DNA from: Methanocaldococcus sp. 28A
GTDB lineage: Archaea; AGJL01; Methanococci; Methanococcales; Methanocaldococcaceae
NCBI GenBank assembly: GCA_049852185.1
Contig: CP187540.1
DNA: 64,000 bases
Strand: one strand, 5' to 3'
Each line of letters opens with the position of its first letter. Position 1 is the first letter of the stretch. The notes beneath the pieces are model-generated. The model was not told the DNA's origin and ran no database searches. It saw only the letters and a program-made list of their open reading frames with translations. Position numbers and translations under genes: made by a program. Shown in pieces: positions 53,401 through 63,697 of the stretch.

Positions 53401-53697
53401 GTAGACATAACAAGCAATGTAATTTTAAATACATTGTTAATAATCTCTGGAGCAATGTTTAATATTTTAGTTATAAAATTATTAAAATTAGAGAAACTAT
53501 TATTGGAAAATAGGTATTTGTTAATGATATATTTAGTAGCTGTAGTTGTTGCTATGAATATATTTGATTAGATAGCTCGACCGATTATCTCTAATTATTT
53601 TAACGTAATTAACTACGTACCATTATCATTTTTTGTTGGGTTTGGAGGAGGAATATTGGTTTCATTCTTTTATTTAATTGCATGGAAAAAATCATAG
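53401..53697 (+). pseudogene. Truncated small multi-TM protein (immunity-like)
   Basis: 99-codon hydrophobic frame ...AMNIFD*IARPII...FFYLIAWKKS*, 5' end removed at the IS boundary. Confidence 0.6.
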
Positions 53698-53817
53698 ATG
53701 TTTAATTCACGCGAAATTTTAGAACTATAATGTTCTAATCTCTGCAATTTCATTTTATATAATTTAGTTTTATCCTTAAAAATCAGTATAACAAAAATTC
53801 ATCTTAATTGTGAAACC

Positions 53818-53982
53818 ATAAAAAACTTACTATCAATATTAACACTCCTAATTTTCTCAATGGGATTCATATTTGGCTTTATATTCATAAATGACTTTTC
53901 AAAAAACTACAAAGGAGAAGAAATAAATTAAAATTTCTACTTTTATATTACTCCAAAAGTTGCAAATTTAGTTATAAAATAA
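53818..53982 (+). pseudogene. SpoIIM scar 1 (internally deleted)
   Basis: FINDFSKNYKGEEIN joined to YITPKVANL, both matching 57699-58256. Confidence 0.85.
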
Positions 53983-54227
53983 ATTTTACTTTTATAAAGT
54001 TTTAGTTATTTTAGAATTATTAAAAATCTTAATTGGCTAATTATTTGTATATTTATGCTTTACTATTTAGTTTAAAATAGTAATATATATATGTGTTTTT
54101 ACATTTATAATTATGAAAAATGTGGAAAATGATATGATATTAAAAAGTATGTTAAATTAAAAAATATTTGGCGATGATGCCCTCTATGGGCGGAGCCAAT
54201 ATTAACGGGCTATATTGAACCACCATA
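53975..54227 (+). repeat. About 250-bp duplicated promoter/5' UTR block, copy 1
   Basis: Near-identical to 56752-57001. Confidence 0.93.
54170..54197 (+). promoter_or_regulatory. Kink-turn hairpin in 5' UTR, copy 1
   Basis: GGC-GAT-GA-TGCCC-TCTAT-GGGCG-GA-GCC. Confidence 0.7.
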
Positions 54228-54240
54228 GAAAGGTGGCATT

Positions 54241-54543
54241 ATAAATATATTAAAGGGTAGTGTATTAAAAGTTTTCGGAGCTGTAGTTTTAGTTAGCATG
54301 ATAGGTGCTTTAGTAGCTGAGCCTGTTGCTTTAGGGGATATTGGAGTGGCTTATTATTTAAAATATCATAACGATTATGGATATATTGATGATGGAAAAG
54401 ACTATGGTAAAAAAGGAATAAAAATTCTTGCAGCGGTAGCTGCAATTGAAGAAGTTGAAGGAACTACTGAAGCAGCTGTTTTAGCTGCATGTGGTCTTAC
54501 TGGTATAGGATTAGTAGCTGTGGGAGCCACAATGGTTTGCTAA
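54241..54543 (+). CDS. Bacteriocin/archaeocin-like precursor 1 (start codon position reads ATA; probably impaired)
   Basis: Frame open from ATA 54241 behind a GGTGG RBS; leader aligns codon for codon with precursor 2 (..ALVAEPVALGDIG); Gly/Ala-rich hydrophobic core. Confidence 0.7.
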   Translation: MNILKGSVLKVFGAVVLVSMIGALVAEPVALGDIGVAYYLKYHNDYGYIDDGKDYGKKGIKILAAVAAIEEVEGTTEAAVLAACGLTGIGLVAVGATMVC

Positions 54544-54574
54544 ATCTATAATAAGTATAAGTAGTGTGATAATT

Positions 54575-54967
54575 ATGAAATCTTTTATTTTTTATTTTTT
54601 TTATAATTGGCGTACAATATTAAATTTATGGATAGTATTTATTGTTGTTTTATTAGCTATTGTAACATTAAAACCTAAAATATCTATTAACATTAAAAAA
54701 TCTGGGGCGATATTGGTTATTTGTATAATTTATACATTACTAAATATATTTGCTTATTATGTTATAGGAAATATTAGTTTAAACATATTGTCTAATGTTT
54801 TTATATCTGTTGTATTATTTGGAATTGGAATAATATTGTATGTTAAGTACCAGTCTGAAAAATTAACAAATAATACTGTTAAATATGCAGCAATTGTGTT
54901 ATTGTTTTTGTCTTTAATAGATGTAATAGAATTATATATAAAAATTCTAATTAAATTAGTTTCTTAA
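54575..54967 (+). CDS. Small 4-TM membrane protein, candidate immunity protein 1
   Basis: Hydrophobic and basic, directly after precursor 1. Confidence 0.65.
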   Translation: MKSFIFYFFYNWRTILNLWIVFIVVLLAIVTLKPKISINIKKSGAILVICIIYTLLNIFAYYVIGNISLNILSNVFISVVLFGIGIILYVKYQSEKLTNNTVKYAAIVLLFLSLIDVIELYIKILIKLVS

Positions 54968-54975
54968 TTTAAATA

Positions 54976-60517: not shown

Positions 60518-60725
60518 AATATGTCTGAATGAAAGTGAGAATGTGATTTGATGGATAAAAAATTTACATAATATTATTTTTATCACTCATTAAATCTTAA
60601 CATGGTAATTTAACAGTGAAATAATAAATGGAAAAAAGATATGGAAAGAAATCAGGAGTTAGCAGACATTATGAAAGGAATTTTAATAGAAAGAGGTGAA
60701 TTAAGATAATAATGGGGTGAATAAA

Positions 60726-60991
60726 ATGAAGAATGTAGATATAGATAATCTACAAGCATTTGTTTATTAAATATGCGAAGCTATTAAAGAAAGAGTTTTA
60801 GAAGCTAAAAAAGAAAAAGACGAAGCTGAAAAACATAAGGATAATGATAAGGAAGAGTATATGTACGCGGTTGGTAGATTATTGGGTCTAACGAAGTGAT
60901 ATCAATAATTAAGCAAACGGCAGAACCTCTTGGAATAGATTTGAAAGAGTTAAAACTTGATGATATAGATCCAGACAAGGATTTGATATAA
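60726..60991 (+). pseudogene. Small acidic protein pseudogene (immunity-like)
   Basis: GGGGTGA RBS; MKNVD...Y*ICEAIKERVLEAKKE...(frameshift)EVISIIKQTAEPLGIDLKELKLDDIDPDKDLI*. Confidence 0.65.
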
Positions 60992-61087
60992 TATATTGAA
61001 ATATTCGTATTTTCTACTTAAGGTCTAATCTCCTCTATTATTTATTTCATCGTCCTTTAAATCTTAATAAATATTTATGGTGAACTA

Positions 61088-61472
61088 CTGAATGATTTAA
61101 TATTAAATCTAGATAAATTTTTCAAAGAGATTGTAACTAAACCAATGAATTTAAAACTTCCTTTAATAATAGTCCTATTATGGTCTTTAGTTAGTTCAGC
61201 TGTTATTTTATAGTTGTGTGCAAAATAAAATAAACTTTTATAATGACAATTACTAATTCCTTACTTTAATTAAGATGCTTTTGCACACAACTATAATTCC
61301 AATGGTATATTTTGAAGGTGTTGAAGATGTCATGTTGTTAATTTTAAAATTTATTATTTTGTTTATAGCTACATTTTTATCTAATACACTAATTTTATTA
61401 ATTATTGCAGGAGTTTCTCATATAATTTTAATAAAATTTTTATTGAATCTTCTAAGTAATGTGGCAAGTTAA
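61088..61472 (+). pseudogene. Second Yip1 paralogue, MITE-disrupted and truncated
   Basis: LNDLILNLDKFFKEIVTKPMNLKLP aligns with the 58333 Yip1 N-terminus; frame restored on MITE removal. Confidence 0.8.
61211..61293. mobile_element. MITE family A copy
   Basis: Perfect TIR, TA duplication. Confidence 0.92.
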
Positions 61473-61502
61473 ATTTTTGTAAGATACTATTAGAGGGAAA
61501 GA

Positions 61503-62207
61503 ATGATTAAACTAAAAAATGTAACAAAAATATACAAAATGGGAGATGAGACAATATATGCCCTAAAAAATGTAAATCTAAGAATAAAAAAAGGAGAATT
61601 TGTTTCAATTATGGGGCCTTCTGGAAGTGGAAAATCTACACTTTTAAATATTATTGGTTGTTTGGACAAACCAACAGAAGGAGAAGTTTATATTGATAAT
61701 ATAATGACAAATGACTTAGATGACAATGAATTAACAAAAATTAGGAGAGATAAAATTGGTTTTGTTTTTCAGCAATTTAATTTAATTCCTTTATTAACAG
61801 CTTTAGAAAATGTTGAACTTCCACTAATTTTTAAGTATAGAAATGCTATGAGTGAAGAAGATAGAAAGAAAAGAGCTTTAGAATGTTTAAAAATGGCTGA
61901 GTTAGAGGAGAGATTTGCCAATCACAAACCAAATCAGTTAAGTGGAGGACAACAGCAAAGAGTAGCTATAGCGAGGGCTTTAGCTAATAATCCACCGATT
62001 ATATTGGCAGATGAGCCTACAGGAGCTTTAGATAGTAAGACAGGAGAAAAGATAATGATATTGTTAAAAAAACTAAATGAAAATGGAAAAACCATTGTTG
62101 TTGTAACACATGATATAAACGTTGCAAAATTTGGAGACAGGATAATTTATTTAAAAGATGGAATGATTGAAAAAGAAGAAATATTAAGGGGAGATTATGA
62201 TAAATAA
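61503..62207 (+). CDS. ABC exporter ATPase (LolD/MacB type, MJ0796-like)
   Basis: GPSGSGKST, FVFQQFNL, LSGGQQQR, ILADEPTGALD, VTH. Confidence 0.96.
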   Translation: MIKLKNVTKIYKMGDETIYALKNVNLRIKKGEFVSIMGPSGSGKSTLLNIIGCLDKPTEGEVYIDNIMTNDLDDNELTKIRRDKIGFVFQQFNLIPLLTALENVELPLIFKYRNAMSEEDRKKRALECLKMAELEERFANHKPNQLSGGQQQRVAIARALANNPPIILADEPTGALDSKTGEKIMILLKKLNENGKTIVVVTHDINVAKFGDRIIYLKDGMIEKEEILRGDYDK

Positions 62208-62595
62208 AAATTCAAATTATGACGAAACTAAGTCAGTTATCATAGGGATTTTTATTTTTATTTTAATGCTAATTGTTGTTAAATATCTTATTGAACTCTT
62301 TGTAATTAACTACCTACCAGAATCATCTATAAATTGGGATAATGTAATTTATTCATTTGTATCTCCAATAGGAGTATTTCTTTCTTTTTCATTATCAACA
62401 TACTTTTTTTCGAAAGGTAAAGTTAAAGAGTTTGCAAAATTCACAGTAAAATTTTTTGGGGTATCCTTAATTATAGGGATTATCTTCTTATATCTTTGGA
62501 TATTTTTTAAAAGAGAGATTCCATCAATGGGTGGATATACAATATTAGTTTTAATTTCATACTTAATAACCACCTTTGAAAAGTTAGATAAGTGA
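62197..62595 (+). CDS. Small 4-TM membrane protein
   Basis: Hydrophobic ORF translationally coupled between the ATPase and the permease. Confidence 0.75.
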
Positions 62596-62599
62596 GATT

Positions 62600-63697
62600 A
62601 TGTATTTTGAATTAGCAAGGAGAAATTTAAAAAGAAATTTGTTGAGGAGTATTTTAGCTTTATTAGGAATAATTATTGGAGTAGCAGCAATATCTTCCTT
62701 AGGAATATTGGGCGGAGGGTTAAAACAGGGAATTATGGAAAACTTAGGAAGTATATCTAACTATATAATTATTTATCCAAATTATCAAAATGGATACACG
62801 TCTTTTGATAAAAAAGATGTTGAAAAACTAAGAATTTTAAATTGTAAAGTTATTCCAGTTTATGCCACTTCTGATTTTGTTTATATAAAGGGAAAGAATA
62901 AAAAAGCCTATGCAAATGTGTTTGGCATTGATAAAAATGATATAAAATATTTAAATTTAGATGTAAAAGTTTCTGACACCTCTGTTGCTGTTGATACTTT
63001 TTTCTCAAATATAAATGATGTTAATATTGGAAATCAGTTAGAGATTAAAAATATATCATTGAGAATATGTGGAGTTTATAACAGCACATTTCTTTTTCCT
63101 GATAACTCAATAATCTTAACGGCAAAAACATATAAAAGGTTTTATAAAGATGAGAACTATTCAAGAATAATTTTGTATGTTAGAGATATAAATGACATTA
63201 ATAGAATAAAAAATGAAACCGAAAAAATTTTGAATAGGAAAGAGAAAAAATGTATCATAATATCTTTAAATTCCATATTAGAAGCAATTAATAGAGTTAT
63301 AACTAAGGTTTCTTATTTTTTAATGGGTATTGGGGCTATTTCTTTATTAGTTGCAGGTATTGGAATTGGAAATGTTATGTTAATGAGTGTTGTTGAAAGA
63401 ACAAAAGAAATTGGAGTAATGAGAAGTATGGGAGCTTCAAAAAAGGACATTATATTATTGTTTTTATATGAAGCATTAATTTTAGGGATTATTGGTTCTT
63501 TAATAGGAGCATTTTTGAGTTTGTTCTTTGGTTATTTAATTGTTCATTATTTGTTAAAAACATCACTATCTTATTATGTCATCATCTATATGATAATTGG
63601 AGTTATATTTGGAATTTTAACATCTTTAATCTCTGCGTTATATCCTGCATATAAAGCGGCAAATTTAGACCCAATAAAAGCATTAAGAAATGAATAA
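62600..63697 (+). CDS. ABC exporter permease (MacB/FtsX type, MJ0797-like)
   Basis: [47 protein letters not shown]. Confidence 0.95.

Follow-up and report, generated by a model that had tools for sequence, protein, structure and literature searches.

A gene island at positions 53401–63697 of a 64,000-nucleotide stretch of DNA from the archaeon Methanocaldococcus sp. 28A (contig CP187540.1 of assembly GCA_049852185.1; the window denotes this whole stretch) contains cassettes in which a short peptide gene, a small membrane open reading frame (ORF), and a SpoIIM/DUF95 gene follow one another. A single module encoding Yip1, a CARDB-domain surface protein, and an ATP-binding cassette (ABC) transporter comes after the cassettes. 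We give an even chance to the reading that the polymorphic, leader-bearing peptide, its cognate membrane ORF, and its cognate SpoIIM, together with the Yip1/MacB-type pump, constitute a toxin–immunity system. The order of these genes is kept among relatives, the peptide core and the membrane ORF are hypervariable, and the SpoIIM protein belongs to the subfamily found in bacterial circular-bacteriocin clusters.

Cassette Architecture and Helper Proteins

Fifteen related loci (denoted by L numbers) were fetched and mapped with the window proteins as queries, and peptide genes were detected in ten of them. The order of peptide gene, membrane ORF, SpoIIM, and Yip1/CARDB/ABC genes is kept in all ten, and since the same order recurs in each, the arrangement of the island is not a chance one. 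The unit of peptide gene, variable membrane ORF, and SpoIIM is repeated in one to five or more tandem copies and is then followed by one Yip1/CARDB/ATPase module, with or without a permease. Such a single module comes after the cassettes in nine of the ten loci; the FtsX permease was found in four, several of the fetched stretches ending before its position. Among the 30 peptide genes of the window and these ten loci, 27 are followed by a membrane ORF of at least 80 amino acids (aa), and in 24 a SpoIIM ORF comes next.

Every substantial ORF between 53400 and 63700 is on the plus strand. The initial annotation of the window had reported two Gly/Ala-rich peptide ORFs, small membrane ORFs, SpoIIM, Yip1, a surface protein, and ABC genes in one orientation, and all of them are present, co-oriented and correctly placed. 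The intact genes of the downstream cassette and the pump module are as follows.

57014–57295, plus strand: peptide gene 2, intact, 93 aa, with a 26-aa signal-like leader and a 67-aa core
57355–57663, plus strand: small membrane ORF 2, 102 aa, candidate cognate immunity protein (L022 orthologue, E 6.7e-48, 81% identity)
57699–58256, plus strand: cassette-type SpoIIM/DUF95 protein, 185 aa, five predicted helices (PF01944, E 4e-36)
58333–58986, plus strand: Yip1-family membrane protein, common to all cassettes (PF04893, E 2.6e-30)
58988–60517, plus strand: secreted, C-terminally anchored CARDB-domain surface protein, 509 aa (PF07705, E 3.5e-5, 24.4 bits against a cut-off of 22.7)
61503–62207, plus strand: MacB/LolD-type ABC ATPase, orthologue of MJ0796 (PF00005, E 7e-39)
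62197–62595, plus strand: 132-aa membrane ORF between ATPase and permease, no family in Pfam or NCBIfam
62600–63697, plus strand: FtsX/MacB-type permease with an extracytoplasmic MacB_PCD domain (PF02687, E 1e-22; PF12704, E 6e-18)

The 93-aa peptide 2 ORF is located 404 nucleotides upstream of SpoIIM. Peptide 2 contains the conserved motif TPVALGDVG, and its 67-aa core is acidic, rich in Gly and Ala, and hydrophobic in its C-terminal tail. Alignment of 29 peptides shows that the leader residues K10, F12, M20, and G22 are invariant and the (E/T)PVALGD(I/V)G stretch that follows is conserved, while the remainder is not. In sequence, the leader resembles a signal peptide for secretion. Among the 28 distinct cores, the median length is 76 aa (range 53–104; 67 and 74 aa in the window); Gly and Ala make up 33% of the residues, and the last 22 residues are strongly hydrophobic. 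After this tail, nearly all cores examined have no charged residue. Circular bacteriocins are about 58–70 aa long. Neither the peptide ORFs nor the two membrane ORFs of the window belong to a Pfam or NCBIfam family, and none of 13 variable membrane ORFs (11 from relatives and the two of the window) reaches a family cut-off in Pfam.

Variability is confined to particular parts of the cassette. Peptides 1 and 2 of the window have only their start in common (13 of 20 residues around PVALGD), and the DNA identity of the two cassettes falls from 87–100% upstream to 63–77% in the leader and to about 50% in the core. Complete triplets numbered 21, three others having been dropped for want of a membrane ORF or for a SpoIIM shorter than 150 aa. 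Over these triplets, the median pairwise identity is 28% for the core, 25% for the membrane ORF, and 58% for SpoIIM. Similarity of the core is correlated with that of SpoIIM (Spearman 0.66, a value reached in none of 2000 permutations), with an inflation due to the common descent of whole cassettes.

The SpoIIM protein connects the cassettes with bacteriocin machinery. It aligns with the SpoIIM of an annotated Bacillus thuringiensis circular-bacteriocin cluster (plasmid hit H3) at 35% identity over 174 aa (80.5 bits), and with the second SpoIIM of its own genome at 33.5 bits over 82 aa; in sequence it is much nearer the bacteriocin-cluster protein than the genome's own paralogue. A tblastn search of 72,556 plasmids with the cassette SpoIIM matched 26 records, 22 of them from Bacillus. 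All four bacterial hits that were inspected (H3, H6, H12, and H17) are inside annotated circular-bacteriocin clusters of the uberolysin/carnocyclin family. Yip1 is present in two of these clusters, an adaptor with an ABC ATPase in three (two of the three with an annotated ABC permease), and one cluster carries four tandem precursor genes. The window and the H3 cluster share 53% identity in the ATPase, 30% in the permease (E 7e-32), and 26% in Yip1 (E 3e-6). A short hydrophobic precursor, SpoIIM, Yip1, and a MacB-type ABC module mark circular-bacteriocin clusters according to the available text of PMC8659200 and bioRxiv 10.1101/2025.10.31.685828, which bears out the initial annotation in treating SpoIIM, Yip1, and an accessory ABC transporter beside a short hydrophobic precursor as the gene set of such clusters.

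A Pro-His-Gly-x-Phe-Glu stretch (within LPHGIFEIP; residues 110–115 in the window protein) is invariant in 25 cassette SpoIIM proteins and occurs as well in the SpoIIM of the Bacillus bacteriocin cluster and in the housekeeping paralogue of the genome. It is a candidate functional site of DUF95. The AlphaFold model of the cassette SpoIIM has a mean predicted local distance difference test (pLDDT) score of 77.6, and a Foldseek search of PDB with it gave no match at E ≤ 0.001. A complex prediction of SpoIIM with peptide 2, run without controls, scored 0.01. On a Methanomethylovorans plasmid (L040, 4841–6489), two near-identical 66-aa hydrophobic Ala/Gly-rich ORFs directly precede a SpoIIM gene; Yip1 and an ABC pump are encoded close by, and the leader is much shorter or lacking. 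Judged by its gene content, this locus is a second archaeal candidate.

In the pump module, the ATPase has its top NCBIfam and PDB matches in MJ0796 (1f3o, 1l2t, and 3tif; E ~1e-134), and also in MacB and LolD. The PDB entries of MJ0796 have titles that call it hypothetical or uncharacterized, and its genomic partners, namely Yip1, the CARDB protein, the FtsX permease, and the peptide cassettes, hint at its natural role. Yip1 scores 32.5 bits (E 5.6e-8) against the YknW_fam model NF052650, whose cut-off is 110. No membrane-fusion adaptor domain of the HlyD/lipoyl type was found in the window pump, and the CARDB gene occupies that position. This gene adjoins Yip1 in 13 of the 15 fetched loci. 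Its 509-aa product was described initially as a secreted and anchored COG1361 protein; an N-terminal signal and a C-terminal hydrophobic anchor can indeed be read from the sequence, and the family match obtained is to CARDB, barely above the cut-off. Counterparts of the 132-aa membrane ORF are encoded at four of the related loci; one matches at E 3e-71, the other three in the range of about 1e-25 to 1e-30.

Distribution, Decay, and Leader RNA of the Cassettes

The only copies of the peptide gene in this genome are the two in the window. Peptide 2 has matches in 17 of 40 Methanococcales genomes, usually several per genome with a spacing of about 1.5 kb, and conservation among these paralogues lies mainly in the first 26–40 residues. 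In a collection of 5.8 billion proteins, the family comprises 67 cluster representatives, of which all the named ones are from Methanococcales. A strong cassette-type SpoIIM is also present in 17 of the 40 genomes and coincides with the peptide family in 16; in the sole genome with SpoIIM only, the peptide gene is truncated after about 18 codons. Yip1 is found in 22 of the 40. Both the peptide and Yip1 are absent from all seven genomes of one genus (Methanococcus, g2).

Beyond this order, a SpoIIM-alignment scan of species-representative genomes returned 44 loci: six from Methanococcales, one from Thermococci, one from Thermoproteota, and the others mostly from Archaeoglobi. A Gly/Ala-rich hydrophobic ORF of 88–119 aa and a small membrane ORF precede SpoIIM in nine of ten inspected Archaeoglobi/Thermococci loci, and Yip1 is on the opposite strand in five. 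The leaders of Archaeoglobi and Methanococcales peptides give a weak in-register alignment (hhalign probability 17%, E 0.0015), for which homology is not claimed. Four of the 44 loci are contigs of 1.4–3.2 kb (L064, L065, L074, and L087) that carry cassette-type SpoIIM at 46–60% identity and are filed in bacterial bins assigned to Arcobacter, Bacteroidales, Desulfurellaceae, and Cyclobacteriaceae; mis-binned archaeal DNA is the more likely explanation and is favored over transfer.

Cassette 2 of the window resembles a cassette from another family of the order at 84% identity in the core, 81% in the membrane ORF, and 87% in SpoIIM. Because these values exceed the 69% identity of the neighboring Yip1, lateral transfer of cassette 2 is indicated, and the comparison points to the movement of cassettes as whole units.

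The genome keeps one intact cassette (57014–58256) and the wreck of two more. The earlier listing of two precursor ORFs holds for the second, which is intact; the first is damaged, and its listed ORF begins within the signal peptide. The features involved in this decay, with the inserted elements, are given below.

54298–54543 and 57014–57295, plus strand: the two peptide ORFs of the initial annotation
52769–53404, plus strand: transposase fragment bordering the island on its upstream side (PF01609 DDE_Tnp_1, E 2.6e-6, partial match)
53413–53694, plus strand: remnant of the membrane ORF of the most upstream, lost cassette (tblastn, 56% identity over 94 aa)
53800–53978, plus strand: SpoIIM remnant 1, the N-terminal ~43 aa and C-terminal ~12 aa, interior deleted
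54241–54543, plus strand: peptide gene 1, probably inactive, with ATA where relatives have ATG
54566–54967, plus strand: small membrane ORF 1, 133 aa, intact, candidate orphan immunity gene (orthologues at E 5e-67 in L025 and ~1e-46 in L023 and L027)
55082–56080, plus strand: insertion sequence (IS) transposase at the expected place of the cassette 1 SpoIIM (PF04693 and PF01609, E ~3e-9)
56089–56252, plus strand: SpoIIM remnant 2, N- and C-terminal pieces (direct repeats; tblastn to residues 1–23 and the last 23 aa)
56312–56759, plus strand: toxin–antitoxin pair between the cassettes, HicB-like (56312–56524) and HicA (56517–56759)
60623–61472, plus strand: remnants of three pseudogenes whose counterparts in L027 are intact (tblastn)

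The membrane ORF remnant aligns to residues 43–135 of a 139-aa ORF (L022:11998–12417) that precedes the relative's SpoIIM. The first SpoIIM remnant has direct repeats with the intact gene and a tblastn match to SpoIIM residues 1–43 of several loci. The frame of peptide gene 1 is open from 54229, the start position at 54241 reads ATA, and the first ATG is at 54298; the orthologue L025:7051–7353 (E 4.6e-54) has a complete signal peptide. Cassette 1 has thus lost its peptide start codon and its SpoIIM and kept its membrane ORF, and in L031 the truncation of the peptide gene after about 18 codons has left the membrane ORF and SpoIIM intact. On these sequences, the membrane ORF persists where the peptide gene is lost, a decay pattern typical of toxin–immunity loci. 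The counterpart of membrane ORF 2 in L022 likewise comes after the orthologue of peptide 2.

The IS transposase and the HicB-like/HicA pair keep the two cassettes of the window apart. HicA is a clear family member (PF07927, E 3.8e-19), and its partner matches HicB_lk at E 4.3e-5, below the cut-off. At L028:7068–7515, L029:4907–5354, and L066:4693–5115, the last on an Archaeoglobaceae contig, the same pair separates a SpoIIM gene or its remnant from the cassette that follows; different small gene pairs, toxin–antitoxin-like in appearance, follow other Archaeoglobi cassettes. Of the genes decayed at 60623–61472, a 175-aa gene survives as its tail, a 91-aa gene is interrupted by a stop and a frameshift, and a second Yip1 paralogue is frameshifted. 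In L027 (3236–4847), the 175-aa protein gene, the gene for the 91-aa charged protein, and the second Yip1 paralogue (191 aa; PF04893, E 5.6e-17) are intact, and the 175-aa gene has its own upstream hairpin of the type described next (L027:4820–4847) and first residues that resemble the end of the peptide leader. These 175-aa and 91-aa genes could be a further toxin–immunity pair.

The conserved 5′ part of the cassette extends into the messenger RNA leader. A TATA-like box and a 5′ leader precede each of the Methanococcales peptide genes examined, and the leader contains a hairpin composed of GGCGATGATG, a variable helix, and CGGAGCC. The window contains the following copies.

53978–54240, plus strand: conserved upstream region, copy 1, TATA-like box and 5′ leader, 87–100% identical to 56753–57001
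56753–57013, plus strand: conserved upstream region, copy 2, with the kink-turn (k-turn) hairpin and a ribosome-binding-site (RBS) hairpin
54170–54197 and 56944–56971, plus strand: k-turn hairpins, identified by sequence pattern

With its C-stem, 3-nucleotide bulge, tandem G.A/A.G pairs, and covarying second helix, the hairpin is a k-turn as judged by sequence. The pattern occurs 37 times (26 distinct) in 12 of 16 sources scanned, always on the cassette strand; outside the window it is present at loci L022–L031, L036, and L058–L063, in places as tandem duplicates; in the 1.56-Mb genome it has two matches only, ahead of the two peptide genes. It is absent from the Archaeoglobi cassette loci. 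Nine distinct inner helices among these instances are fully paired. Over nine alignable pairs, 91.1% of cells are paired; shuffles give 78.7% (0 of 500 reach the observed value), and sliding the partner leaves no more than 40% paired. Two of the pairs alternate among C-G, A-U, and U-A. A second hairpin, CCACC...GGTGG/GGTGA at 54220–54237 and 56994–57010, pairs the Shine–Dalgarno-like GGTG just before the peptide start codon, which suggests that it could mask the translation start. The covarying k-turn hairpin in the leaders of Methanococcales peptide genes is new here.

An Rfam scan of 53400–64000 gave no match at E ≤ 1. A scan for bacterial-type promoters and terminators, with models ill-suited to archaea, found sites at no more than the frequency in shuffles. 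Five tRNA genes (Tyr, Pro, Thr, Arg, and Ser) are on the minus strand of the window at 147–1373 and 27182–27271 and are unconnected with the island.

Proposed Mechanism and Competing Explanations

The mechanism that we infer treats the island as an array of exchangeable peptide toxin–immunity cassettes sharing one membrane pump. The pre-peptide encoded by each cassette would consist of a signal-like leader that is conserved and a hypervariable core of about 65–80 aa that is acidic, rich in Gly and Ala, and terminated by a hydrophobic tail; the hypervariable small membrane protein would give cognate immunity, and the cassette's own SpoIIM/DUF95 would be a cognate maturation factor, an immunity factor, or both. 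The leader would bring the peptide into or across the membrane and be cleaved immediately ahead of (E/T)PVALGD. SpoIIM may then act on both ends of the product, the newly exposed, conserved N-terminus and the hydrophobic tail at the C-terminus, possibly joining them head to tail by analogy with bacteria; such cyclization of the peptides is conceivable, and we rate it as rather improbable. The pump of Yip1, CARDB protein, MJ0796-type ATPase, and FtsX permease would pull the hydrophobic product off the outer face of the membrane, resulting in release of the peptide and protection of the producer. In Methanococcales, the k-turn and RBS hairpins in the peptide mRNA leader probably restrain translation.

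Several results weigh against this toxin–immunity reading. Searches of Pfam and NCBIfam at E ≤ 1 gave no circular-bacteriocin family for any of the 29 peptides, the peptide profile has no hit in PDB at E ≤ 10, and hhalign assigns a probability of 0.5% to the alignment of the archaeal peptides with a Bacillus precursor. The labels AS-48-like and cyclic, given to the system at first, are conjectural. Enterocin AS-48 is the textbook circular bacteriocin. A saposin-like helical bundle had been expected of the core, and the AlphaFold2 model of peptide 2 from the 29-sequence alignment is all-helical and too low in confidence to be used for that check (pLDDT 54, predicted TM-score (pTM) 0.27); the ESM Atlas model of the peptide has a pTM of 0.24, and its best feature score of 0.81 is within the chance range. 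The cores are acidic in 24 of 28 cases, with a median isoelectric point of 4.45, whereas a cationic character is typical of the best-known circular bacteriocins. A plain membrane-anchored protein would likewise combine a signal peptide with a C-terminal hydrophobic tail, and the shared descent that inflates the correlation between core and SpoIIM lessens its force. The membrane protein of about 550 aa and the dedicated ATPase that are present in all four bacterial clusters have no counterpart in the window or the mapped related loci. Yip1–CARDB–ABC stands without a cassette in three inspected genomes, and Yip1 alone in a fourth; because of these cassette-free modules the pump must have a role of its own. 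Cassette-type SpoIIM, for its part, is almost never free of a peptide, so that the occurrence of SpoIIM, Yip1, and ABC genes without peptides, which the initial annotation had named as a refutation of its reading, was found for the pump genes only. Upstream of one cassette-free module (L034:6279–8136), there are overlapping short ORFs whose peptide strings recur on both strands, which probably comes from reading through a repeat array of the CRISPR type. The describers of the locus put forward roles other than toxin–immunity in the available text of PMC4158269 and PMC5898192. As a whole, the initial claim that the island makes, exports, and protects against a thermostable, possibly cyclic peptide is partly supported, being favored by the gene set and the SpoIIM subfamily and disfavored by the precursor family and the want of a dedicated transporter.

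The variable peptides and membrane ORFs might instead be polymorphic surface or membrane parts serving in self/non-self recognition or in blocking viruses or foreign peptides, with SpoIIM as an assembly scaffold and the ABC pump as a resistance device. A membrane-associated defense system with highly variable components near a SalXY-like transporter is what PMC4158269 proposes in its available text, and the hypervariability, patchy distribution, and lateral transfer would suit any arms race; the solitary pump of some genomes and the combination of a signal peptide with an anchor-like tail agree with it as well. PADLOC models, however, match none of the seven non-ABC proteins, the SpoIIM subfamily is that of bacteriocin clusters, and nearly all cores lack the charged residue after the tail that a stable type I anchor would be expected to have. 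The membrane ORF that outlasts its peptide gene is the signature of an immunity gene, whereas a receptor-type system would be more likely to lose both, and we regard the defense explanation as unlikely. A membrane-remodeling or vesicle-forming complex around the SpoIIM and Yip1 homologues, with the small proteins as structural subunits, was argued for in section 3.3 of PMC5898192 from the involvement of SpoIIM in forespore engulfment and of Yip1p in vesicle budding, and the genome does have a separate SpoIIM paralogue. The cassette SpoIIM is distant from this widespread paralogue (33.5 bits), 23 of the 40 genomes of the order are without the system, unlike what a housekeeping machine would show, and five or more divergent tandem copies would not be expected of it. 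With IS elements, toxin–antitoxin pairs, and pseudogenes throughout and exchange between families, such a complex is decidedly unlikely.

That the small ORFs are type IV pilin-like or S-layer pieces of a surface-appendage operon is scarcely credible. The class III signal-peptide (prepilin) motif has a conserved Gly at −1 before a hydrophobic stretch. The leader of the peptide 2 type, ...LKGFAAV..., resembles this cleavage site, and a neighboring gene encodes the CARDB surface protein. Yet the residue after K10 is Gly in 23 of 29 peptides, Val or Ile in four, and Cys or Ser in two; no pilus ATPase, platform protein, or prepilin peptidase was recognized in the 15 mapped loci, which were screened only with the genes of the window; and only the N-terminal 26–40 aa are conserved across paralogues. 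Pilin and S-layer-fragment readings were rejected on these three grounds.

If the toxin–immunity reading is true, it would provide a physiological function for a "dark matter" locus that is widespread in archaea and for MJ0796, a classic model ABC ATPase. Literature searches combining archaea with bacteriocin, SpoIIM, and Yip1 found no characterized ribosomal peptide toxin for Methanococcales or hyperthermophilic methanogens, and very heat-stable membrane-active peptides would be indicated. The part of DUF95 in leader removal and cyclization, called unresolved by the bacteriocin field in the available text of PMC8659200, could be settled with natural matched peptide–SpoIIM pairs, and the cassette-specific k-turn leader would represent natural k-turn-based control of an accessory gene family. 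A broader proposal, which we consider doubtful, is that archaea at large produce SpoIIM-matured, cyclized, thermostable "archaeocins" unrelated in sequence to the bacterial peptides, every variant being paired with a DUF95 maturase/immunity partner of its own, with DUF95 as the specificity-bearing cyclization factor, MJ0796 as the motor of release and immunity, and L7Ae–k-turn gating in Methanococcales.

Comparison with Known Systems

The locus of the window is of a type already described. Makarova reported variable cassettes of arCOG01996 (DUF95) in Methanococci, Archaeoglobi, and Thermococci (PMC4158269, 2014; PMC5898192, 2015), accompanied by Yip1 (arCOG02054), fast-evolving small membrane proteins (arCOG09673), a SalXY-like ABC transporter, and an S-layer-type protein; to this extent comparative genomics had flagged SpoIIM/Yip1-linked archaeal peptide loci before, as the initial annotation stated. 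One representative of the present peptide family is Metvu_0325 (profile E 2.1e-18), the type member of arCOG09673. In the available text of these papers the small proteins are called membrane proteins with three predicted transmembrane segments, and the roles proposed are a membrane-associated defense system (PMC4158269) and membrane remodeling with vesicle formation (PMC5898192, section 3.3). New beyond that text are the reading of the small proteins as leader-bearing precursors, the unit of peptide, membrane ORF, and SpoIIM, the link to the bacteriocin-cluster SpoIIM subfamily, the orphan-immunity decay, and the k-turn leader. Literature searches found no earlier bacteriocin reading of the locus, and the supplementary tables of Makarova may list its genes.

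Control of translation by L7Ae and k-turns in archaeal mRNA 5′ leaders has precedent in the available text of PMC5539422 and PMC6298567. The putative element described here has the C-stem, 3-nucleotide bulge, tandem G.A/A.G pairs, and second helix of the L7Ae-binding leader k-turns by sequence; it differs from them in being cassette-specific and sometimes duplicated, and in having no Rfam match.

The closest bacterial counterparts are the circular-bacteriocin clusters of Bacillota (L039 and L102–L104; B. thuringiensis and Priestia plasmids). Both have a Gly/Ala-rich hydrophobic precursor of about 70–110 aa with an N-terminal leader, the same SpoIIM subfamily (35% identity over the full length), Yip1, and a MacB-type ATPase with an FtsX permease; several precursor copies are present in some clusters, and transposases are near. 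Unlike the bacterial clusters, the archaeal loci have precursors that are not detectably homologous to theirs, an own SpoIIM and an own small membrane ORF for each peptide, and neither the ~550-aa membrane protein nor the dedicated ATPase. The archaeal leader is long and signal-peptide-like and exceeds the core in conservation, the cores are mostly acidic, and a CARDB surface protein takes the place of the lipoyl/HlyD-type adaptor.

A precedent for the pump module is YknWXYZ of Bacillus, whose four components rid the cell of SDP, an endogenous peptide toxin (PMC4887032, available text). A Yip1-family protein and a MacB-type ATPase are common to both pumps, as is an FtsX permease that has an extracytoplasmic domain; YknWXYZ is linked to a self-made membrane-active peptide, and the archaeal module to peptide cassettes. 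The archaeal Yip1 scores far below the cut-off of the YknW model, a CARDB protein is present instead of the membrane-fusion protein, and the host has no peptidoglycan.

The cassettes also resemble polymorphic toxin arrays with orphan immunity genes, and class II bacteriocin loci, in which the leader is conserved and the mature peptide varies. Common to these systems and to the archaeal cassettes are a conserved 5′ part (promoter and leader) with a variable 3′ part, tandem divergent cassettes, cognate small membrane proteins, decayed toxins beside intact immunity genes, and lateral cassette exchange. The archaeal cassettes differ in having no double-glycine leader, no C39 peptidase transporter, and no large delivery protein, and in that each of them includes a SpoIIM gene.

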